A stretch of 64,000 nucleotides of DNA, taken from positions 17,482 to 81,481 of the forward strand of contig JAJYGF010000015.1 in assembly GCA_021785125.1 (NCBI GenBank), read 5' to 3'. Source of the stretch: a bacterium. Lineage in GTDB: Bacteria; Patescibacteriota; Minisyncoccia; Moranbacterales; UBA2206. Numbering within the stretch: the first letter of the stretch is position 1; every line of letters begins with the position of its first letter. Below, piece after piece: positions 22,243 through 38,130 of this stretch. The notes under the pieces were generated by a model. The model did not search any database. It was given only the letters and a program-made list of their open reading frames with translations, and was not told where the DNA came from. The position numbers and the translations under genes were made by a program.

Positions 22243-22311
22243 AAACATATAATCATGCGGATAATCCGGAGACGCGCTCTGGATTTTTTTGGCGCTGAAT
22301 TTCCAACAGGG

Positions 22312-22340
22312 TTGACAAAAATATGCTATGTGTGATAATA
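22312..22340 (+). promoter_or_regulatory. sigma70-like promoter TTGACA-17-(TG)ATAATA
   Basis: TTGACA 22312-22317, 17-nt spacer ending TGTG, ATAATA 22335-22340. Confidence 0.5.
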
Positions 22341-22369: not shown

Positions 22370-23422
22370 ATGCAAAAAAACGATAATTTAAATGAGAATA
22401 AAGCTAATGGAAAAAATTCGAGCTTCTTTGATCTGGCGGTGCTTTTATTGAATAATTTGCCTGAAAGATCGCGGGAAATAATCAAGAAAAGATACGGACT
22501 TTCCAATTCCAAGCCGGAAACCTTGGAAAAAATCGGCAAAGATTACGGCATAACCAGAGAACGGGTGCGCCAGATCATTGCCGATTCCGTAAGGAAAATT
22601 TCCAAACTTGCCGCTCTGCAAGAATTTAATATTGCAGAGGAGAAAATAATTTTGGAAATAGACGGAAGAAATGGTATAATTAGCGATAAGGAGCTGGCGG
22701 AAATTTTTGGCTCAAGTCAGAAAGAGTCCAATGCCGTGCGTTTTTTTGCCACATGCTCGGCTAAGATTTTCGAGACTGAAGAAAAAGGGCTGATCGCGCT
22801 TTCGTGGACAACCTCAGAAGACGTCGTGAAGAAAATTAAAGAATTCGCCGGCATAGTCAAAGAAGTCTTGATCGCAGCCGGCAAGCCGTTGACCGAAAAG
22901 GAATTGATGGGCAGTATAAGCGTCGATAAAGGCTATTCGGAAAGCCAAATTGTAAATTATTTGAAAGTGCTGGCTGAAATCGCCAAAAATCGGTTTGAAA
23001 AGTGGGGTTTTGCCGGTTGGATGGAAATTAATCCGAAAGGGACGCGCGAGAAGATTTATTTGATCTTAAAGGAAAAGAAAGTGCCGTTGCATTTTACGGA
23101 AATTGCGGTTCTGATCGATAAATCGGGAATAAGCAAGAAAAAATCTCATCCTCAAACTGTGCATAATGAATTGATAAAAGACGAGAGATTCATCTTGATC
23201 GGACGGGGAATATATGCGTTGAAGGAGTGGGGCTATGCTTCCGGCACCATCAAAGATGTTTTGGAGGACATTCTGACAAAGAGCGGCAAGCCGATGACCA
23301 AAGAAGAGATCTTGGAAGAAGTGACCAAGGCGAGGCGGGTCAAGCGCGCTACGGTCATGATCAATTTGAATAACAATCGGAAATTTATCAAGAAGGATAA
23401 CAAATATTCGTTGAAAAGATAA
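22370..23422 (+). CDS. DNA-binding protein with sigma-70 region-4-like HTH followed by HARE-HTH-like (RNAP delta N-domain-like) winged-helix repeats
   Basis: ETLEKIGKDYGITRERVRQIIADSVRKI resembles sigma r4; C-terminal segments ...HFTEIAVLIDKSG...DERFILIGRGIYALKEWG resemble HARE-HTH. Confidence 0.5.
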   Translation: MQKNDNLNENKANGKNSSFFDLAVLLLNNLPERSREIIKKRYGLSNSKPETLEKIGKDYGITRERVRQIIADSVRKISKLAALQEFNIAEEKIILEIDGRNGIISDKELAEIFGSSQKESNAVRFFATCSAKIFETEEKGLIALSWTTSEDVVKKIKEFAGIVKEVLIAAGKPLTEKELMGSISVDKGYSESQIVNYLKVLAEIAKNRFEKWGFAGWMEINPKGTREKIYLILKEKKVPLHFTEIAVLIDKSGISKKKSHPQTVHNELIKDERFILIGRGIYALKEWGYASGTIKDVLEDILTKSGKPMTKEEILEEVTKARRVKRATVMINLNNNRKFIKKDNKYSLKR

Positions 23423-23449: not shown

Positions 23450-24694
23450 ATGGATCAAAACAATTTCATGGGCATATTGGGAAGCTTCGCGCAGCCGTTC
23501 TATCAGGTTTGGTGGATGGTTATGCCGGTGCTTCTTTTTTATTTGTTCGCGTTTCTTTGGGACGACTATGTCAAGGGCGAATGGAGCGGCAAGATGGAAT
23601 GGACGATGATTGAGATCATTCCGCCCAAAGATCTGGAAAAGGGGCCGAAATTGATGGAATCGATATACCAGGGATTATGCGGAGTCGTCGTCAGCTACAA
23701 CGCGTTCGATGAATATGTCATGGGAATGTTCACGGACAAGTTCAGTTTCGAACTGGTCGGTTTGGGCGGAGAGGTGCATTTTTATGTGCGTGTCCAGAAA
23801 AAATTTAGAAATTTGCTGGAAGCGCAAATATACGCTCAATACCCGGATGCCGAAATTTTGGAAGTGGACGACTATGTCAACAATTTTCCCCGCGTTGTGC
23901 CGAATAGCGGTTGGAATTTATGGGGTTCTGACATGGTTTTGATTAAGCCGGACGCGTATCCATTGAGGACGTACGACAAGTTCGAAGAAGACATCACTGG
24001 CACCATGATCGATCCTATCGCTGGATTTGTGGAGCTTTTCGCTTCGACACCGCCAGGCCAGAATATGTGGCTGCAGATCATAGTTCAGCCGCTGGAAGAA
24101 GTCTGGAGGAAAAAATCTGGCGCGGAAAAAGAAATTCAGAAGCTGGCCGGCCGGGCGAAAGAATCCAGGGGGCTGTGGTCGGACGTGACGGATGTGTTTA
24201 CCAATCTCTTTAAAGCGCTTTGGCAGCCGGTGGAATTTCCATCGACCAAGAAAGAAGAGCAGCCATTGGAATTCAGATTGACGCCTGTAGAAAAAGACGT
24301 TCTCAAGGCAGTGGAAGAAAATCTCGGCAAGAACCAGTATAAGATAAAGATGAGGTTTATCTATGTAGGCAAGCGTGAAGGTTTCGATATGGGCTACGTG
24401 ACCGGATTTTTCGGCGTCACCCGGCAGTTCAATGATTTGAATCTCAATGGAATCAAGCCAGATGATTCCAAGACGACCGCGCATTTCGTGGCGATAGATA
24501 CGCGCCTTGACACGATGAAGCGCCGCATATATGAACGCTATCGCAAAAGAAATACGGATGGCAAAACCTTTGTTTTTTCGACTTCCGAACTGGCTACCAT
24601 CTATCATTTCCCGGATATGGCAGTCCGTACGCCGGCGTTGTCAAGAGTGGAATCCAAGCGGGGAACGGCGCCATCCAATCTGCCCACCGCGTAA
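23450..24694 (+). CDS. hypothetical N-terminally membrane-anchored protein; partner of downstream coupling-ATPase
   Basis: 414 aa; one N-terminal TM (FYQVWWMVMPVLLFYLFAFLW); no recognisable catalytic motifs. Confidence 0.5.
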   Translation: MDQNNFMGILGSFAQPFYQVWWMVMPVLLFYLFAFLWDDYVKGEWSGKMEWTMIEIIPPKDLEKGPKLMESIYQGLCGVVVSYNAFDEYVMGMFTDKFSFELVGLGGEVHFYVRVQKKFRNLLEAQIYAQYPDAEILEVDDYVNNFPRVVPNSGWNLWGSDMVLIKPDAYPLRTYDKFEEDITGTMIDPIAGFVELFASTPPGQNMWLQIIVQPLEEVWRKKSGAEKEIQKLAGRAKESRGLWSDVTDVFTNLFKALWQPVEFPSTKKEEQPLEFRLTPVEKDVLKAVEENLGKNQYKIKMRFIYVGKREGFDMGYVTGFFGVTRQFNDLNLNGIKPDDSKTTAHFVAIDTRLDTMKRRIYERYRKRNTDGKTFVFSTSELATIYHFPDMAVRTPALSRVESKRGTAPSNLPTA

Positions 24695-24696
24695 TA

Positions 24697-24725
24697 TTGA
24701 AAATTATCGATTTTTTCAATATAAT
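24697..24725 (+). promoter_or_regulatory. sigma70-like promoter TTGAAA-17-TATAAT
   Basis: TTGAAA 24697-24702, TATAAT 24720-24725, flanked by TTGAAAA/TTTTCAA inverted repeat. Confidence 0.5.
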
Positions 24726-24776
24726 TAGGAATCTAATATGTCATAGCTGAAAGCTCAAGCTGTCGGCTGATCAAAA

Positions 24777-26654
24777 ATGTCGGAAATAAATTTTTTTGCA
24801 AAAACCAATTTCAGGAATAAGGAGCAGATTTTTGGCATCAAGCGCGATGATCGGCGCCGCCATATGTATATCATCGGAAAGACCGGCATGGGAAAGTCCA
24901 ATTTGCTGGAAAATATGGCCATCCAGGATATCCGCAACGGCGAAGGTGTTTGCGTGGTCGATCCGCATGGGGAATTCGCGGAAAAAATGCTGAAAGCCGT
25001 GCCAGCCAGCCGCGTCAATGATGTCATCTATTTCAATCCGGCGGATGCGGATTTTCCGATCGCTTTCAACATTCTGGAATCAGTCGAAGAAGACAAAAAA
25101 AATCTGGTGGCTTCCGGTATGATGGGCGTGTTCAAGAAAATTTGGCCGGACGTATGGAGTCCGAGAATGGAATACATCTTGAACAATACCATTCTGGCGC
25201 TTTTGGATTATCCCGGTTCGACCATGCTTGGTGTGAATCGCATGATGGCCGATTCGGCATATCGCAAAAGGATCTATCCGAAAATCAAGGATCCAGTGGT
25301 TAAGTCGTTCTGGATTAATGAATTCGACAAATGGGATGACAAATTCAGAAAAGAGGCGGTGGCGGCTATCCAGAACAAAGTCGGACAGTTTTTGTCGTCT
25401 TCTGTCATCCGGCATATCGTCGGACAGCCTAAATCCACCATAGACATGCGTGAGATCATGGATAATCAGAAGATCCTGATTGTCAATCTGTCCAAAGGAA
25501 GGATTGGAGAAGATTCCATGCGCCTCTTGGGCGGTATGATCGTCACTAAAATCCAATTGGCGGCCATGGGGCGCGTCGCAATTTCCGAACTGGAAAGGAA
25601 AGATTTCTATCTGTATGTGGACGAGTTCCAAAATTTTGCCACGGAAGCGTTTGCCAATATCCTTTCCGAAGCCAGAAAGTATCGCTTAAATCTGATTTTA
25701 GCGCACCAATATATTAACCAGCTCATTTTTGACGGGAACACGACCGTACGCGATGCCGTTTTTGGCAACGTGGGGACCATAGTATCGTTCCGGGTCGGAG
25801 CGGAAGACGCGGAGCATCTGGAAAAGGAATTTGATCCGGTGTTTTTGATGAATGACATCGTCAATCTGTCCAAATATCACGTCTACCTGAAGCTTATGAT
25901 CGACGGTGTGGCGGGAGATGCGTTTTCGGCCACGACCTTGCCGCCGTTCAATTTGGATGAAACGGTGGACAATGAGGAAAAGATCATACGGGTGTCGCGA
26001 GAGAGATATAGCCGGCCGAAGGCGGAAGTGGAAGATCGGATCGCCCGCTGGAGCGGCATGGAAGTTTTCAAAGAGAATCCCTTGGGCGGCAAGGAAGAAT
26101 CGGATAATGCGGGCGAAAATTACGATTCGGAATTGTATGAAGAAAAACCTCATTTGTCGTCGAAAAGAAGCCGTTTGTCCGAAAATTACATCAAAAACGC
26201 GGTCAATAATTCAGCCATCCAGCTGTCGATGCCGGTGCGAGAAACTTATTCTGCCGAATGTGCCAGCTGTGGTGCCGGTATCACGGTGCCGTTTAAGCCG
26301 GATCCGAATCGGCCGACTTTTTGCCGTGAGTGTCTGAAGGATTATCAACGGTCAATGGCCAGGAAAAGATTGGTGGCTGAAAAGAGAGAGAGCGCTTCCG
26401 CTACTGTCCATGCTGACAATACGATCGTGAAAAAAGTTTTGCCGAAAGAGAACAACCAGCCGGAAGCTCAAGCCAAGAGAACTTCCGAACATGTCGTATA
26501 CGCGCCGCAGGACCGGCCGATGAGTCTGTCGCAGATGTCGCATATCGCGCCGAAAAAATTCAAGCCGCAACGGCCGAAGCCGAATGTGAATCTTGAAGAA
26601 GTCAGAGAGCTTCTGGATAAAACCAGGAAGCCGAAAGAAAATGGAGGACAATAA
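24777..26654 (+). CDS. type IV coupling protein-like ATPase (VirD4/TraG/TrwB family, FtsK-HerA superfamily) with C-terminal zinc ribbon and basic tail
   Basis: Walker A IIGKTGMGKS, Walker B YLYVDEFQNF, LILAHQYINQL (TraG-D_C-like), CASCG...CRECL zinc ribbon, K/R/P-rich C-terminus; 625 aa. Confidence 0.7.
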   Translation: MSEINFFAKTNFRNKEQIFGIKRDDRRRHMYIIGKTGMGKSNLLENMAIQDIRNGEGVCVVDPHGEFAEKMLKAVPASRVNDVIYFNPADADFPIAFNILESVEEDKKNLVASGMMGVFKKIWPDVWSPRMEYILNNTILALLDYPGSTMLGVNRMMADSAYRKRIYPKIKDPVVKSFWINEFDKWDDKFRKEAVAAIQNKVGQFLSSSVIRHIVGQPKSTIDMREIMDNQKILIVNLSKGRIGEDSMRLLGGMIVTKIQLAAMGRVAISELERKDFYLYVDEFQNFATEAFANILSEARKYRLNLILAHQYINQLIFDGNTTVRDAVFGNVGTIVSFRVGAEDAEHLEKEFDPVFLMNDIVNLSKYHVYLKLMIDGVAGDAFSATTLPPFNLDETVDNEEKIIRVSRERYSRPKAEVEDRIARWSGMEVFKENPLGGKEESDNAGENYDSELYEEKPHLSSKRSRLSENYIKNAVNNSAIQLSMPVRETYSAECASCGAGITVPFKPDPNRPTFCRECLKDYQRSMARKRLVAEKRESASATVHADNTIVKKVLPKENNQPEAQAKRTSEHVVYAPQDRPMSLSQMSHIAPKKFKPQRPKPNVNLEEVRELLDKTRKPKENGGQ

Positions 26655-26832
26655 GAATATTTTTATCCGGCAAATTCCGCCTTACGGCGGAATAATCATA
26701 CTCGTTCTTGCTTCGCTTTTCGTGGCTTGGTTTACGATCAGTATCGGCGAGAAAATCATAAAAGATACGCCGCAGTCAAATATTTACGCTTCGCAGAGGT
26801 CGGCGCAAAAAATGATCGACAACCTGCACTAG
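26641..26832 (+). CDS. 63-aa single-TM micro-protein
   Basis: ATGGAGG start overlapping end of ATPase gene; IPPYGGIIILVLASLFVAWFTI TM helix. Confidence 0.4.
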   Translation: MEDNKNIFIRQIPPYGGIIILVLASLFVAWFTISIGEKIIKDTPQSNIYASQRSAQKMIDNLH

Positions 26833-26869
26833 AGCGAATGGTGCAACCAGGTGGCCGAAAGGCTGCCTT

Positions 26870-28185: not shown

Positions 28186-29502
28186 ATGATAAATGCCAAT
28201 TTATTAAAAGAAATCATTACTGAACAACGAGGATTGTTTTCGAATACCGTCGGCTCTATTGATCGGGATATTTTGCATACTGAAAATTTTTCCAAAATTT
28301 GTCGTCTGAAAGAAGCGGTAATTGTTACTGGTATCAGGCGAAGCGGGAAATCATATCTTTTGAGGCTTGTTTGGGAAAAAATAAAAAAAGAAGAAAAGGC
28401 AGTTGAAAATAATTTTTTGTATTTTAATTTTGAAGACGAGAAACTCCTTCGGTTTCGAGCTGATGATTTTGATTTGATGATGGAAAGTTATTTTGAATTG
28501 TTTGATGTAAGGAGAGATAAAAAAGTCTATTTGTTTTTTGATGAGATTCAGAATATTCCTGGATGGGAAAAGTTTATTAATCGCTTATTAGAAAAAGATG
28601 AATATAAGATATTTATTACCGGCTCAAACGCAACCTTGCTTTCGAAAGAAATAAGTAGTTCGCTTACGGGGAGGAATTATTCGATAATCGTATATCCGCT
28701 GTCTTTTAGGGAATTTGCGCGCTATAAACTTGGCAGAGAATTGAAATCTGCGGAAATGCACGAACAAAAGAGCAGGATCGCTGTGAAAAAAGTTTTTAAG
28801 GAATATGTTGATAATGGAGGCTTCCCGGAAATAGCCATCAATAATTTTCGTCCTCTTCTTCAAGAATATTTGAAAAATATAATTTATCGGGATATAGTTC
28901 TGCGCTATAAAATAAAAAATGAAGCAAATCTGCGGGAAATTTCCGCATTTATCATTTCCAATATTGGAACAATATTGAGTCTTGAAAAAATACGCAAAAT
29001 GACAAAGGTGAGAAATTTGATGACAATCAAAAATTATCTTTCTCATCTCGAAGACTCATTTCTATTTTTTCTCGTGCCTAAACACAGCTATTCTATTAAA
29101 AAGCAGATATACAATCCGGATAAAATATATGTTATTGATACGGGAATGTATAATGAAGTGGCATTTCTAAATAGCCCCAATGACGGGCGCCTGTTAGAAA
29201 ATCTGGTTTTTCTAGAACTTCGGCGGTTAAATAGGGGCGTATATTATTTTGAAGATAAAAAAGAATGCGATTTTGTTATCCAAGAGAAAAATAAAATAAA
29301 GCAAGCTATTCAAGTTTCCAAATTGTTGTCGGTTGAAAATAAAGAAAGAGAGATTGCGGGATTGGTTGAGGCTATGGAGAAATATAGTTTGGAAGAAGGA
29401 CTTATCTTAACGGAAGACGGAGAGGATGATATAAAAGTTGGGGATAAAAAGATTCTAGTCAGGCCAATATATAAATGGCTCTTATTCGGTTTGGAAAAAT
29501 AA
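28186..29502 (+). CDS. AAA+ ATPase of the COG1373 / DUF4143 family
   Basis: GIRRSGKSYLL Walker A variant and LFFDEIQ Walker B typical of COG1373; 438 aa. Confidence 0.8.
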   Translation: MINANLLKEIITEQRGLFSNTVGSIDRDILHTENFSKICRLKEAVIVTGIRRSGKSYLLRLVWEKIKKEEKAVENNFLYFNFEDEKLLRFRADDFDLMMESYFELFDVRRDKKVYLFFDEIQNIPGWEKFINRLLEKDEYKIFITGSNATLLSKEISSSLTGRNYSIIVYPLSFREFARYKLGRELKSAEMHEQKSRIAVKKVFKEYVDNGGFPEIAINNFRPLLQEYLKNIIYRDIVLRYKIKNEANLREISAFIISNIGTILSLEKIRKMTKVRNLMTIKNYLSHLEDSFLFFLVPKHSYSIKKQIYNPDKIYVIDTGMYNEVAFLNSPNDGRLLENLVFLELRRLNRGVYYFEDKKECDFVIQEKNKIKQAIQVSKLLSVENKEREIAGLVEAMEKYSLEEGLILTEDGEDDIKVGDKKILVRPIYKWLLFGLEK

Positions 29503-34762: not shown

Positions 34763-36031
34763 GTGGGAATTTTTTCCAAAATTTTAGGCACGCGCGGCAT
34801 ATCTTCCGATCATATCCTTTCTCTTGATATCGGAACCGAAGTGGTGAAAGCTTTGGTTTTCAAGATTGACAAGGAAACCGGCAACGGTATTGTTATCGGT
34901 GTCGGGCGAGCCAGGCAGAAATTGGGCGACATGCAGAGCGGCGCGGTTTCCGATATCGCCGGTGTGATTGAAAATTCCAGGCGCGCCATCGCGATGGCCA
35001 AGCAGATGGCGGGAATTAAAAAAGTCGAGAAGGCCATCATCGGAATCGCGGGCGAGCTGGTCAAGGGGACCACGACGACCGTTCACTATGAAAGAATTAA
35101 GCCGGAAATCAGGATCGATTTGCCGGAACTCAAAAATATAATCCAAAAAGTCCAATGGAAAGCTTTTGATCGGATCCGCCAACAGCTGGCTTGGGAGACG
35201 GGACATAGCGAAATTGAAGTGAAGCTCATCAACGCGGCCATCGTGGACGTGCGGATCGACGGTTATCGCGTGACCAATCCGATCGGATTCCAGGGGCGCG
35301 ATGTCTCCATCTCGGTTTTCAACGCGTATGCGCCGATGGTGCATCTGGGCGCGCTGCAATCCATCGCGGAAGAATTGAAACTGGAGCTTTTGAGCATCGC
35401 GGCCGAACCATATGCCGTGGCCAGATCAATGGGCATTGAAGACGTTTTGGATTTCAATGCGGTTTTCATCGATATCGGCGGCGGCACGACAGACATTGCC
35501 GTGGTGAGAAATGGCGGACTGGAAGGTACCAAAATGTTCGCTTTGGGCGGCCGAGCTTTCACGAAAAGGTTGGCCCGGGAACTAGGAATAACATTTGATG
35601 AAGCGGAAGTTTTGAAGATAAAATATGCCGAAGGGAAACTGGGCCGTGATGTTTCAGCAAAAATCGAAAAGATGCTTGAATCAGATTGCGGCGTGTGGTT
35701 GAGCGGAGTCGAGCTGTCCCTGGGAGAGTTTGCCGAGTCCGACACTTTGCCTTCCAGATTTTTTCTGTGCGGAGGAGGCTCCGGTCTGCCGGGAATAAAA
35801 AAAGCGCTGATCAATTCGAAATGGACCAAGAATTTGCCGTTCGCCAAATTGCCGCAAGTAAGCTTTCTGCAACCGAAAGACGTGGTAAATATCTTTGATT
35901 CGACCGGAGATCTGCGGGATCCCCAGGATATTACTCCGATGGGGCTGGCTAATTTGGCATTGGATCTAGCCGGTGAGGAAAAAGTGATGGCCGGCATCTT
36001 GCGCCGCGCGGTAAAAATGATCCAGAAGTAA
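34763..36031 (+). CDS. ftsA: actin-like ATPase, FtsA family (PilM not excluded)
   Basis: LSLDIGTEVVKALVF and FIDIGGGTTDIAV phosphate motifs; C-terminal amphipathic GILRRAVKMIQK; GTG start. Confidence 0.6.
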   Translation: MGIFSKILGTRGISSDHILSLDIGTEVVKALVFKIDKETGNGIVIGVGRARQKLGDMQSGAVSDIAGVIENSRRAIAMAKQMAGIKKVEKAIIGIAGELVKGTTTTVHYERIKPEIRIDLPELKNIIQKVQWKAFDRIRQQLAWETGHSEIEVKLINAAIVDVRIDGYRVTNPIGFQGRDVSISVFNAYAPMVHLGALQSIAEELKLELLSIAAEPYAVARSMGIEDVLDFNAVFIDIGGGTTDIAVVRNGGLEGTKMFALGGRAFTKRLARELGITFDEAEVLKIKYAEGKLGRDVSAKIEKMLESDCGVWLSGVELSLGEFAESDTLPSRFFLCGGGSGLPGIKKALINSKWTKNLPFAKLPQVSFLQPKDVVNIFDSTGDLRDPQDITPMGLANLALDLAGEEKVMAGILRRAVKMIQK

Positions 36032-36153
36032 GTCTGAACCACAGATTATCGCTGATTTTCCTGATTACACTGAATTTTTATAAATAAAATTTTTTATATA
36101 CTAATCATGTGTTATCACGTGTATTCAGGTGATAATCAGTGGTTCTGATATTT

Positions 36154-38130
36154 ATGCACCAGACATTCTATATCGACATAGACGAAGAGATAACCTCCAT
36201 AGTGGACAGATTGAGGAAGGCTAGAACCAAAGAGGCGGTTATTGTTGTTCCGAAAAGAGCCATGCTTATCCAAAGCATAGTCAATTTGAAATTGCTCAAA
36301 AAAGAAGCGGACGAACTTAAGAAAGAATTGATCATCGTGACGCAAGATAAGTTTGGCAAGCTCTTGATTGAAAAAGCGGGAATAACCGTGGAGCAGAATT
36401 TGGATGATATCGGAAGCGCGGAGATTTCCGCGGCGGAGACAAGAGAGGATGAAGGCGTGAAAGCTTTTATGGATATGCCGGAAAATTCTCGTGAGGAAAA
36501 AAATAAAAAACGCATGAGCGGCATAGGTTCGGACGGCTACTATCAAACTGACATTCCTGAAAATGTTGCGGGACACGGCGAATATATGGAAGAAGCGGCA
36601 CTCCGCAAGAAAGGCGCGACGGAAGAGAAGATCATCAACAAGGAATTGGTAACTGACGTATCGGAAGGCCTGAAAAAGCAGAAAGCGATTCTTGGTGGAA
36701 AATTCTTCCGTAAGGCTTCGATGGACATGATCCGCAATCTGGAAATCACGGAAAGTGACAATGTCGCAAAAGATCATCAAAACGAAGGATATTTGAAACC
36801 TAAAAAGAAACCTTCCAAGAGCAAAAGTTTTACGCGGGATAACTTTGAAGATCAAAAGGACATGGAAAAATCCATTGATCGCAAGAAGGTAAAAAATTTT
36901 TTCGAGAATAAGAAAAAAAATGATTATGGTGACGAGTATAAAAGCATCAACATAGGCAGGCGGGCGCGAAAATATTTCTTCATTTTCAGCTTGGTGGCCA
37001 GCATGGCTATTCTTGGCGCTCTGGCTTATCTTTTCTTGCCGAAAGCGACAGTGACCATTTTTGCCAAAAATGACATTCAGACTGTCGATGCTCAAATTCA
37101 AGGAGATGTGAATGAGCAGGCGGTGGATGCTGAAAAGAATATCATTCCGGCCAAGATTGTCACAGTTAGTCAGGAACTTTCCGAAACATACGCTACGACC
37201 GGAAAAAAAAGCGTCTCCAACCAAAAAGCCAGAGGAACCGTAACTTTGTATAACGAATTCAGTTCAAGCCCGCAAATATTGGTAGCTACGACGCGCATCC
37301 AGAGCAGTGGTGGGAAAATTTTCCGCCTGGTGAGCGGGGTTTCTGTTCCCGGGTATCAGGCGGACGGTGCCGGTGCCGTCAAGCCTGGCATTATCGAAGC
37401 CGAAGTGGTGGCTGACGAATCCGGCAGTGCGTACAATATCGGACCTGACAGTTTTACCATTCCCGGTTTTCAGGCTGACGGAACGCAAAAATATTCCAAA
37501 ATTTATGCCAAATCATCCAAGGCGATGTCCGGCGGCGGAGATGGCGATCAGGCCGCCAGTTCGGTGACGGATTCCGATATAAATGCGGCCAAGACCAAAA
37601 TAATGTCCGAGCTGATTCCTAAAGCGGAACAAAAATTGAAAGATATCGCCGGATCGAATTATATAATTCTGGACGATGCCGTAAATACGGATGATTCTAC
37701 TTTTACTCTTTCGAATTCTTCAGGCGATATCGCGAACAATTTGACTGTAGATGTCAAGACTAACGCTAAAGCCATCGCTTTTAAGAAAGACGATGTAAAT
37801 GGAATTTTGATGAATATGATAGCGCAAAAGAGCGGCAGAAAATTAAACATGTCGCAAAATTCTCTAAATGTGGAATTTGGAAAATCGGATGTGGATTTCA
37901 ATTCGGGCACGATCATCATCCGCGCCCATGGTTCGATAAACATGCTGCCGAATATCAATCTTACTGACTTGAAGAATGCTGTAGTCGGCAAGAGTGAGGA
38001 TGATTTAAAGGCTTATTTAAGCGCATATTCCGATATTGATCATATCGCGATTTCTTATTGGCCGTCTTTTCTGACCGGAAAAATGCCGACTTATGCCGAT
38101 AGAATAACGATTGTGCTTGACAATAATTGA
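36154..38130 (+). CDS. large bitopic hypothetical protein (cytoplasmic N-domain, one TM, ~380-aa extracytoplasmic domain)
   Basis: 659 aa from ATG 36154; TM YFFIFSLVASMAILGALAYLFL; long antisense ORF 36136..37224 rejected. Confidence 0.55.
   Translation: MHQTFYIDIDEEITSIVDRLRKARTKEAVIVVPKRAMLIQSIVNLKLLKKEADELKKELIIVTQDKFGKLLIEKAGITVEQNLDDIGSAEISAAETREDEGVKAFMDMPENSREEKNKKRMSGIGSDGYYQTDIPENVAGHGEYMEEAALRKKGATEEKIINKELVTDVSEGLKKQKAILGGKFFRKASMDMIRNLEITESDNVAKDHQNEGYLKPKKKPSKSKSFTRDNFEDQKDMEKSIDRKKVKNFFENKKKNDYGDEYKSINIGRRARKYFFIFSLVASMAILGALAYLFLPKATVTIFAKNDIQTVDAQIQGDVNEQAVDAEKNIIPAKIVTVSQELSETYATTGKKSVSNQKARGTVTLYNEFSSSPQILVATTRIQSSGGKIFRLVSGVSVPGYQADGAGAVKPGIIEAEVVADESGSAYNIGPDSFTIPGFQADGTQKYSKIYAKSSKAMSGGGDGDQAASSVTDSDINAAKTKIMSELIPKAEQKLKDIAGSNYIILDDAVNTDDSTFTLSNSSGDIANNLTVDVKTNAKAIAFKKDDVNGILMNMIAQKSGRKLNMSQNSLNVEFGKSDVDFNSGTIIIRAHGSINMLPNINLTDLKNAVVGKSEDDLKAYLSAYSDIDHIAISYWPSFLTGKMPTYADRITIVLDNN

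Follow-up and report, generated by a model that had tools for sequence, protein, structure and literature searches.

We analyzed a 64-kb stretch of Patescibacteria DNA (order Moranbacterales, contig JAJYGF010000015.1, positions 17,482 to 81,481), which we call the window and to which all coordinates below refer unless another locus is named. The subject of this work is a pair of genes on its plus strand that encode the two halves of a putative split motor, an open reading frame (ORF) of 414 amino acids (aa) at 23450 to 24694 and an ATPase of 625 aa at 24777 to 26654, followed by a small ORF of 63 aa at 26641 to 26832. An annotation made earlier from the sequence alone (hereinafter, the original prediction) had delimited these three ORFs exactly as we found them, and had described them as a stand-alone membrane protein, a type IV coupling protein (T4CP)-like ATPase and a micro transmembrane protein forming a module without a type IV secretion system (T4SS).

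The 625-aa protein, whose fold is known from a model, is a VirD4/TrwB-type motor that lacks the N-terminal transmembrane domain customary in such proteins. All the motifs originally listed for it were found again. These are the Walker A sequence GKTGMGKS (residues 34 to 41; 24876 to 24899, plus strand), which is invariant in 71 orthologues, the Walker B sequence YLYVDE followed by FQNF (residues 278 to 283; 25608 to 25625, plus strand), which falls within the region aligned to TrwB, and, downstream, the invariant residues R300 and Q311 (AHQ311), with the motif LILAHQYINQL. The nucleotide-binding domain with its helical insertion covers residues ~24 to 430. It is followed by a treble-clef zinc ribbon, CxxC-x17-CxxC (residues 495 to 519; 26259 to 26333, plus strand; Pfam zf_Tbcl_2, 2.3e-11, and TIGR04272, 1.5e-12), and by a disordered basic tail (residues 526 to 625; 26352 to 26651, plus strand) that ends in a conserved amphipathic motif, the last 100 residues of the protein comprising 21 K/R, 12 D/E and 9 P. 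No transmembrane segment was detected in the ATPase (highest 19-residue Kyte-Doolittle mean, 1.31), so hydropathy upholds the earlier view that it has no membrane domain of its own and is preceded by a separate, N-terminally anchored protein.

The coupling-protein identity of the ATPase was also borne out by hidden Markov model (HMM) searches. It passed the Pfam gathering cut-offs of PF10412 TrwB_AAD_bind (45.2 bits against 20.5; 8e-12), PF02534 T4SS-DNA_transf (28.0 against 20.1) and PF12696 TraG-D_C (23.0 against 22), as well as that of DUF87 (38.4 against 23.2), and matched the coupling proteins better than FtsK or HerA. It stayed far under every cut-off of the TraD/VirD4 equivalogs of NCBIfam (e.g., 55 against 366 and 39.6 against 250), and we therefore consider it a member of the superfamily that belongs to no named orthologous group. 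TrwB and DotL were the best matches in a sequence search of the PDB, and in hhalign the alignment of the 71 orthologues matched TrwB over 258 columns with 94% probability, while the match to VirB4/TrwK was restricted to the P-loop. In the AlphaFold2 model (predicted local distance difference test [pLDDT], 74), the helical insertion (residues 105 to 230) separates Walker A from Walker B within the nucleotide-binding domain, and a disordered linker leads to the zinc ribbon, after which the tail is again disordered. The first Foldseek match of the model was TrwB (E value of 2.9e-8; TM-score normalized to the target, 0.53), followed by DotL, Cagβ, HerA and the C-terminal domain of VirB4.

Three other identities were tried for the ATPase and rejected. 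An FtsK/SpoIIIE protein would not agree with the lack of PF01580, PF17854, the γ winged helix and the N terminus with four transmembrane helices, nor with the lack of any FtsK among the top 50 fold matches. HerA was discarded on the scores against its equivalogs (16 against 970), the rank of HerA folds below those of T4CPs, the absence of a NurA, Sir2 or DUF4297 partner and the absence of a PADLOC system. As for a VirB4-type C-terminal ATPase, AAA_10 scored 12.9 bits (cut-off, 27.5), TIGR00929 gave an E value of 0.073, and the TrwK match was the P-loop one mentioned above.

The tails of the ATPase orthologues vary from 50 to 333 aa and are net positive in 90% of them. About 15 orthologues (L055, L057, L061, L062, L066, L076, L078 and L080 to L082) end in LKPG[EQ]x[VI]KF-COOH, which stands in place of the amphipathic helix (K.EVDL..LR..L) found at the end of the window-type tail. 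One locus (L069, 1733 to 1927) has a free 64-aa ORF matching just the zinc-ribbon part of the ATPase (E value of 7.5e-7), indicating that the CxxC-x17-CxxC module also occurs as a free small protein.

The 414-aa protein had no match in our local copies of Pfam and NCBIfam. Every homologue of it is annotated with a newer Pfam family, PF26449 (DUF8128), the name also used by UniRef, and 1,939 clusters at 50% identity reached an E value of ≤1e-3. Hydropathy locates a single N-terminal transmembrane helix at residues ~19 to 37 (23504 to 23560, plus strand), and the count of K/R in 256 members of the family, 0.77 over the 15 residues that precede the helix and 2.14 on the other side, predicts by the positive-inside rule an N-out, C-in topology with the body of the protein in the cytoplasm. 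The AlphaFold2 model (pLDDT, 81.5; predicted TM-score, 0.77) has a helix over residues 3 to 48 and then α/β domains, the cytoplasmic part amounting to ~380 residues. The anchor assumed by the original prediction is thus confirmed, but the protein is more than a generic transmembrane domain provided in trans.

The nearest solved fold of this cytoplasmic part is full-length VirB4. In a Foldseek search of the PDB, the top 14 matches of the DUF8128 model were all TrwK/VirB4 of R388 in its full-length form (best E value of 2.8e-5), although with low TM-scores of 0.34 to 0.37, and the VirB4-like protein gp155 of phage G matched it as well (E value of 2.9e-7). Structures of the C-terminal domain of VirB4 alone match the ATPase model and are absent from the DUF8128 list, so the resemblance is most likely to the N-terminal domain of VirB4. 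Since the TM-scores are low and the similarity is structural only, we take the VirB4-like fold as a lead rather than a result.

The extreme C terminus of the DUF8128 protein is a second conserved element. The window protein ends in G-T-A-P-S-N-L-P-T-A (24662 to 24691, plus strand), a version of the family motif [AP]PxNLP[IV]x-COOH, in which P408, N410, L411 and P412 are invariant in close homologues; 237 of the 256 full-length members end in LP plus no more than four residues. Some long forms (P0363, P0383, P0348, P0331, P0320 and P0308) contain the motif twice, with a low-complexity linker of 100 to 250 aa in between. We had considered these long matches as DUF8128-ATPase fusions, and they turned out to be low-complexity extensions ending in the second copy of the motif. 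Such a pattern looks like that typical of a tethered docking motif, making this a candidate docking peptide.

True fusions were found outside Patescibacteria. The 414-aa and 625-aa genes are the two halves of one protein family, split in Patescibacteria and fused in phages and plasmids. The phage family phrog_5156 (annotated as "unknown function," 824 positions) aligns at positions 76 to 360 with residues 95 to 394 of the window DUF8128 protein (E value of 1.8e-10) and at positions 407 to 806 with residues 23 to 424 of the ATPase (E value of 8e-60). It is the closest family to the ATPase, with an HMM score of 204 bits compared with 45 bits for Pfam TrwB_AAD_bind, although these come from different libraries. 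By tblastn, the ATPase matched 47 phage records, mostly from Bacillus phages (including G gp156, SPO1 gp27.4, CP-51, JL, SP8, D6E, TP-84 and PBC5), with residues ~372 to 751 of G gp156 being aligned at 26% identity (E value of 3e-38). The members of phrog_5156 include G gp156, SPO1 gp27.4, D6E ORF23, PBC5_050 and the proteins of JL and CP-51. The DUF8128 half is recovered as clearly by profile and by fold. Its hhalign profile matched gp156 residues 29 to 320 with 98.3% probability (E value of 1.3e-14) and SPO1 gp27.4 with 77% (E value of 1.9e-5), and among viral models its best Foldseek match was gp156 of phage G (825 aa; E value of 3e-17; TM-score normalized to the query, 0.52), then JL (913 aa) and Slash; all PDB matches were far poorer. 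The pCLK plasmid of Clostridium botulinum encodes a protein (CLK_RS19280) that matches with an E value of 5e-4 and aligns collinearly, and the fused protein occurs in full length on large plasmids of C. botulinum and C. sporogenes and partially on plasmids of Bacillus, Staphylococcus, Streptomyces and haloarchaea. This Rosetta-stone relationship is the strongest evidence that the two window proteins act as one unit, and it backs the "split T4CP" put forward in the original prediction.

The fused phage and plasmid proteins are single polypeptides of 740 to 910 aa with no N-terminal transmembrane helix; small transmembrane or VirB6-like proteins are encoded alongside. Phage G (L090, JN638751, 87772 to 93336) carries a mini T4SS-like cluster of gp153 (TrbL/VirB6-like), gp154, gp155 (VirB4-like, with P-loop_TraG and AAA_10) and the fused gp156. 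In SPO1 (L091, FJ230960, 91819 to 97329), an actin-like protein (ALP), gp27.9, three mini transmembrane proteins, gp27.4 and an overlapping Replic_Relax nicking protein, gp27.3, are found together. The D6E gene (L092) lies with an ALP partition protein and an integrase, that of PBC5 has a protein with two transmembrane helices upstream and is inside a replication module, and in pCLK (L095, NC_010418, 108421 to 111221) the fused gene overlaps an upstream TrbC/VirB2-family gene by 4 nucleotides (nt). To judge from these sequences and their neighbors, the ancestry of the family therefore seems to lie in mobile elements of monoderms, with their T4SS-type genes and their genes for DNA processing or partition. 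This agrees with the origin of the Patescibacteria T4SS proposed in the literature, namely conjugation systems of monoderms. As side observations, MOB-suite types the botulinum plasmids carrying the fused gene as nonmobilizable, and gp155 is included in phrog_2666, labeled "terminase large subunit"; given that Pfam points to P-loop_TraG/AAA_10, this label looks like a misannotation.

To evaluate the conservation of the locus, we used a diverse alignment of DUF8128 to scan GTDB at one genome per species, which gave at least 593 confirmed stretches or species, and analyzed the best 80 loci, which are the nearest to the query. Their lineages include Moranii-, Pacei-, Yanofsky-, Terry-, Portnoy-, Lipton-, Niyogi-, Sung-, Magasanik-, Buchanan- and Spechtbacteria, although several of the taxon labels are unreliable. 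DUF8128 and the ATPase were two separate ORFs in all 80. The ATPase was the next gene 3' of DUF8128 in 65 of the 67 loci that could be evaluated (median gap, 23 nt), and DUF8128 was directly upstream of all six ATPase homologues looked up by exact sequence, so the proposed synteny of the 414-aa protein with the ATPase holds across many Patescibacteria lineages. On the other side, the gene next to DUF8128 in the 5' direction was in 69 of 73 evaluable loci (median gap, 55 nt) one that joins σ70 region 4 to a HARE-HTH (winged-helix) domain. In the window, this σ70_r4/HARE-HTH gene (22370 to 23422, plus strand) encodes a 350-aa DNA-binding protein (Pfam Sigma70_r4, 1.2e-13; HARE-HTH, 8.9e-13) that carries three winged helices and may be an uncharacterized RNA-polymerase-associated factor of Patescibacteria. 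The conserved core is thus a collinear set of σ70_r4/HARE-HTH, DUF8128 and ATPase. What had been described as a three-gene module is indeed a conserved module of the candidate phyla radiation (CPR), but its membership was different, with the σ70_r4/HARE-HTH gene left out and a clade-specific 63-aa protein taken in. Among the variants, L076 and L080 have no HARE-HTH gene at that position, and L036 (3576 to 6999) has two tandem copies of the ATPase (583 and 478 aa) after DUF8128. In about 40 of the 80 loci (L004 to L083, positions -3 and -2 relative to DUF8128), secD and secF directly precede the unit, an adjacency that is absent in the clade of the window and that could be either inherited gene order or a functional hint.

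The 63-aa ORF (plus strand; ATG start, or 79 aa from a TTG at 26593) has one transmembrane segment (residues 17 to 35; mean hydropathy, 2.5), overlaps the stop of the ATPase gene by 14 nt, in agreement with the overlapping stop and start noted originally, and has a Shine-Dalgarno-like AGGAAG 11 nt upstream. The two closest relatives (L086 and L087) conserve it at 51 to 55% identity with the same 14-nt overlap, which indicates a real gene, and it is weakly conserved in L001. It was not found in two other close relatives, L088 and the P0137 locus. A small hydrophobic ORF of any kind follows the ATPase in 13 of 71 loci, some Moranbacteria having an unrelated mini transmembrane ORF there. Being confined to a narrow clade, the 63-aa protein was rejected as a core component and is regarded as a clade-specific accessory.

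Transcription signals were predicted by consensus scans and are pattern matches only. A terminator-like hairpin (22263 to 22285, plus strand) ends the preceding yceG/mltG-like gene and would mark the upstream boundary of the unit. It is followed by the best promoter-like site of the region (22312 to 22339, plus strand), TTGACA-16-GATAAT with an extended -10 TG and 11 of 12 consensus positions, located 31 nt 5' of the σ70_r4/HARE-HTH gene, the end of which is separated from the 414-aa gene by 27 nt. Downstream, a terminator-like hairpin with a T-run (26849 to 26868, plus strand) lies 3' of the 63-aa ORF. The hairpin and promoter-like site upstream, the 27-nt gap and the hairpin downstream suggest a four-gene transcription unit. 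The site TTGAAA-17-TATAAT (24697 to 24725, plus strand), which the original prediction took for the module's own promoter, is not upstream of the module but inside the 82-nt gap between DUF8128 and the ATPase, and it is not a conserved feature because this gap is far shorter in most other genomes.

The remainder of the window is a CPR-like housekeeping stretch with mraZ/mraW/PBP/murF, ribosomal protein genes, dnaB, cysS and dnaK. A gene for an AAA_14 and DUF4143 ATPase (28186 to 29502), between mnmA and the next genes, has a GC content of 33% compared with ~45% for the window and may be an inserted element. A 663-aa protein without a Pfam match (36139 to 38130) is encoded directly after an FtsA/PilM-like gene (34763 to 36031), and this pair recurs in the related L001 and L003.

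Published data sets allow the locus to be placed in the biology of the phylum. Quiñonero-Coronel et al. 2025 found 5,713 VirD4 homologues in 2,918 of 3,035 Patescibacteria genomes (96%), just 148 of the 5,713 being near virB4, and VirB4 itself in 2,417 of the 3,035 genomes (~80%) (PMC12102498). The "without a T4SS" of the original prediction therefore holds for the window only, given that a VirB4-based T4SS is encoded elsewhere in some 80% of Patescibacteria genomes. The same survey reported that relaxases are nearly absent in Patescibacteria, for which reason their T4SS is believed to have taken on a role other than conjugation, and stated that an exaptation of the orphan VirD4 homologues "cannot be ruled out" (PMC12102498).

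The only functional data come from the transposon sequencing (Tn-seq) of Southlakia epibionticum ML1 (Wang et al. 2023), in which SEML1_0294, a σ70_r4 and HARE-HTH protein, is essential although a separate RpoD exists (PMC10633639). The next gene, SEML1_0293, encodes a 921-aa T4CP-like protein with a TrwB domain at residues 402 to 719; it is non-essential, and its normalized reads fall from 5817 to 2940 and 1372 over the time course, ~4-fold, and both genes were flagged as core and Patescibacteria-enriched (PMC10633639). The T4SS cluster of Southlakia is essential and has no recognizable coupling protein, whereas canonical FtsK is present and essential and comEC is dispensable (PMC10633639). 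Also essential is SEML1_0142, another long paralogue of T4CP type (1019 aa; P-loop at 381 to 800), which follows two small hypothetical genes, one of them essential (SEML1_0140 to SEML1_0142) (PMC10633639). SEML1_0142 may be the real coupling ATPase of that T4SS.

Taken together, these results indicate that DUF8128 and the ATPase most likely work, by inference, as a membrane-docked motor for nucleic-acid coupling or translocation. The DUF8128 protein would cross the membrane once, N-out and C-in, its cytoplasmic α/β body forming the membrane-proximal tier beneath which the soluble ATPase would assemble as a TrwB-like ring. The ring would be held by an interface inherited from the fused ancestor, perhaps also by the C-terminal ...PxNLP[IV] peptide of DUF8128. 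It should hydrolyze nucleoside triphosphates, since its catalytic residues are intact, and the zinc ribbon and basic tail would bind the substrate, most likely DNA or nucleoprotein. Since a DNA pore cannot be built from a single transmembrane helix per subunit, the motor has to pass its substrate on to a separate conduit, for which, because of its ancestry, the chromosomal Patescibacteria T4SS, encoded elsewhere and without its own coupling protein, would be the first choice, although this is the weakest step of the proposal. The T4SS-coupled role would be a transfer of DNA or nucleoprotein that is dispensable for growth. The σ70_r4/HARE-HTH protein could serve the motor as its DNA-binding adaptor, or it could be an essential transcription factor merely sharing its operon. 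The balance of the evidence tips slightly toward this account as a whole, that is, a split DUF8128 and TrwB/VirD4-like motor with a nucleic-acid substrate and the chromosomal T4SS as its conduit.

Several observations weigh against this account, mainly against its link with the T4SS. No VirB4, VirB6, pilin, relaxase, competence or other T4SS gene was detected across the window, nor any T4SS gene within 7 kb in any of the 80 loci, and T4CP homologues (96% of genomes) are more widespread than VirB4 (80%). In Southlakia, the T4SS genes are essential and SEML1_0293 is not, so the essential function of the T4SS does not need it; moreover, the orthology of SEML1_0293, with DUF8128 fused to it, is deduced from its size (~380 extra N-terminal residues) and its neighbor only. 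Neither single sequences, a Pfam scan of 67 members nor a PDB profile search gave a sequence link between DUF8128 and the N-terminal domain of VirB4, and hhalign of the two profiles gave a probability of 0.2%. The zinc ribbon is present in 45 of the 71 ATPase orthologues (those of the fetched loci) and missing in the other 26, hence it is not essential to the core mechanism. Finally, one locus (L074, 5924 to 12309) has HARE-HTH and DUF8128 followed by yceG, mnmA and alaS, with no adjacent ATPase. Because of the essentiality data, the absence of any linkage to T4SS genes and the fact that T4CP homologues reach further than VirB4, we also consider roles independent of the T4SS.

The first such role, which we regard as rather unlikely, is DNA uptake, with the DUF8128-ATPase ring sitting on the ComEC channel of the type-IV-pilus competence system and pulling in single-stranded DNA. 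ComFA plays this part in Firmicutes. ComEC is present in 86% of the genomes of CPR bacteria, organisms believed to scavenge DNA, Southlakia is naturally competent via ComEC and type IV pili, and comEC and SEML1_0293 are both non-essential there; a nucleic-acid substrate suits the zinc ribbon and basic tail, and the spread of T4CP homologues beyond that of VirB4 also speaks for a role of this kind. The string "ComFA" does not appear in the Southlakia annotation tables, but such a protein could be annotated as a DEAD-box helicase, and a missing word is not a missing protein. However, no competence genes adjoin the pair in the window or in the 80 loci, the relatives on mobile elements are always accompanied by T4SS-type, relaxase-like or partition genes and never by competence genes, and comEC insertion reads stay flat over the time course while those of SEML1_0293 drop, so that the two phenotypes differ. 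A broader proposal, which we hold to be unlikely, is that DUF8128 and the ATPase represent an unrecognized branch of the VirB4/VirD4 proteins (a VirB4-like N-terminal domain with a VirD4-like motor) working as a split core machine that is independent of the T4SS and imports or exports nucleic acid with σ70_r4/HARE-HTH as its adaptor. If true, this might, for example, supply the cytoplasmic motor that is missing from the ComEC-dependent scavenging of DNA by organisms unable to make nucleotides.

Gene order by itself would point in another direction, as the deepest and strongest synteny is with the σ70_r4/HARE-HTH gene and not with any channel gene. The δ subunit of RNA polymerase has the HARE-HTH fold, and σ region 4 binds the β-flap of the polymerase. 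The pair could then be a cytoplasmic DNA-handling or transcription-linked machine that acts with σ70_r4/HARE-HTH and transports nothing, positioning or segregating DNA at the membrane or remodeling stalled transcription, and the ALP partition proteins beside the fused homologues of SPO1 and D6E would agree with this. We find it quite unlikely, given that the membrane anchor and the T4SS-type relatives fit a transport role better, and that in Southlakia only the HARE-HTH gene, and not the neighboring one for the ATPase, is essential, which means that they do not act solely in concert. A more specific version, replacement of FtsK, was rejected because the ATPase lacks FtsK domains and Southlakia has its own canonical, essential FtsK.

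The substrate could also be protein, with the ATPase recruiting effectors to the T4SS or aiding Sec-dependent export, an explanation that seems improbable to us. Many T4CPs and VirD4 proteins do recruit protein substrates, a T4SS repurposed away from conjugation, with relaxases nearly absent, would be in keeping with that, and secD and secF are directly upstream of the unit in about half of the loci examined, although this adjacency is lacking in the window's clade and may reflect inherited gene order. On the contrary, the zinc ribbon, the basic tail and the DNA-binding neighbor all point to nucleic acid, and SEML1_0293 is non-essential even though the Southlakia T4SS is essential. Lastly, a domesticated phage or plasmid remnant or a HerA-like antiphage defense module without a conserved cellular role, suggested by the phage and plasmid location of the closest relatives outside Patescibacteria and by PADLOC matches of the ATPase to mad8 (1e-18) and weakly to HerA, is highly improbable and was already disfavored, since the setting is chromosomal and housekeeping with a gene order kept across deep lineages, the family is near-universal and rated a "core family" and "Patescibacteria-enriched," the ATPase is 65 to 80% identical between orders, and neither an integrase, a defense partner nor a PADLOC match for DUF8128 was found. 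A defense system was rejected on the same grounds, the PADLOC matches being generic ATPase ones only, and a viral origin of the window locus on a single partial DUF8128 match in 2.9 million IMG/VR contigs.

The finding is not categorically new because orphan T4CP homologues of Patescibacteria and the DUF8128 family were already on record. Our searches found no paper mentioning DUF8128 or PF26449 and nothing relevant on σ70_r4/HARE-HTH fusions in bacteria, on the phrog_5156 family or on phage VirB4/VirD4. The searchable literature does not appear to describe the link between DUF8128 and the ATPase, their fused phage and plasmid relatives, the plan resembling VirB4, the putative docking motif at the C terminus or the operon with an essential sigma-like protein. 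Patescibacteria, which are nucleotide-dependent epibionts, account for a large part of bacterial diversity; for their orphan VirD4, this work provides a partner domain, DUF8128, a split architecture and a conserved operon partner that is essential in the one genetically tractable relative, Southlakia, where the question can now be tested directly. It also draws attention to an uncharacterized family of ATPases encoded by Bacillus phages, SPO1-like and others, and by botulinum-toxin plasmids.

With regard to known systems, the ATPase shares the family of its nucleotide-binding domain, the fold and the helical insertion with T4CPs such as TrwB of R388, VirD4, TraD, TraG, DotL and Cagβ. Canonical T4CPs have the N-terminal transmembrane domain in the same polypeptide, whereas here there is one transmembrane helix in trans together with the ~380-residue DUF8128 domain, which they lack; the Patescibacteria genes are in addition chromosomal, near-universal in the phylum and away from T4SS and relaxase genes (in the window, and over 7 kb in the 80 loci), and the ATPase has an extra zinc ribbon and basic tail. 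The phrog_5156 and pCLK proteins are homologous in both domains and have them in the same order, DUF8128 and then the T4CP-like ATPase, but they are fused, of which Patescibacteria have a split variant with two ORFs (82 nt apart in the window), and their neighbors are VirB2-, VirB4- or VirB6-like, Replic_Relax or actin-like partition genes instead of σ70_r4/HARE-HTH.

The general plan, with a large membrane-proximal N-terminal domain, a P-loop domain of FtsK-HerA type and a short transmembrane element on the N-terminal side, is that of VirB4 (TrwK) plus VirB3. Among solved structures, none but full-length TrwK matches the DUF8128 model strongly, at the low TM-scores given above, but the ATPase half is VirD4-like, its TrwK match being limited to the P-loop, and there is no sequence signal to the VirB4 N-terminal domain. 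An analogy can be drawn with TrsD and TrsE of pGO1 (MPF-FATA T4SS), in which the gene of the VirB4 ATPase is directly preceded by that of a separate small protein, reportedly with a remote similarity to the VirB4 N terminus. No T4SS component is more abundant in Patescibacteria than the homologues of TrsD (PMC12102498). The DUF8128 profile showed no similarity to TrsD or TrsE, and TrsD sits by VirB4 in the T4SS cluster, while DUF8128 adjoins a VirD4-like ATPase far from it. The gene order is also that of SEML1_0294/SEML1_0293 of Southlakia, with σ70_r4 and HARE-HTH followed by the T4CP-like protein, the latter apparently fused (921 aa) where the window has two ORFs, and this is the only relative for which functional data exist.

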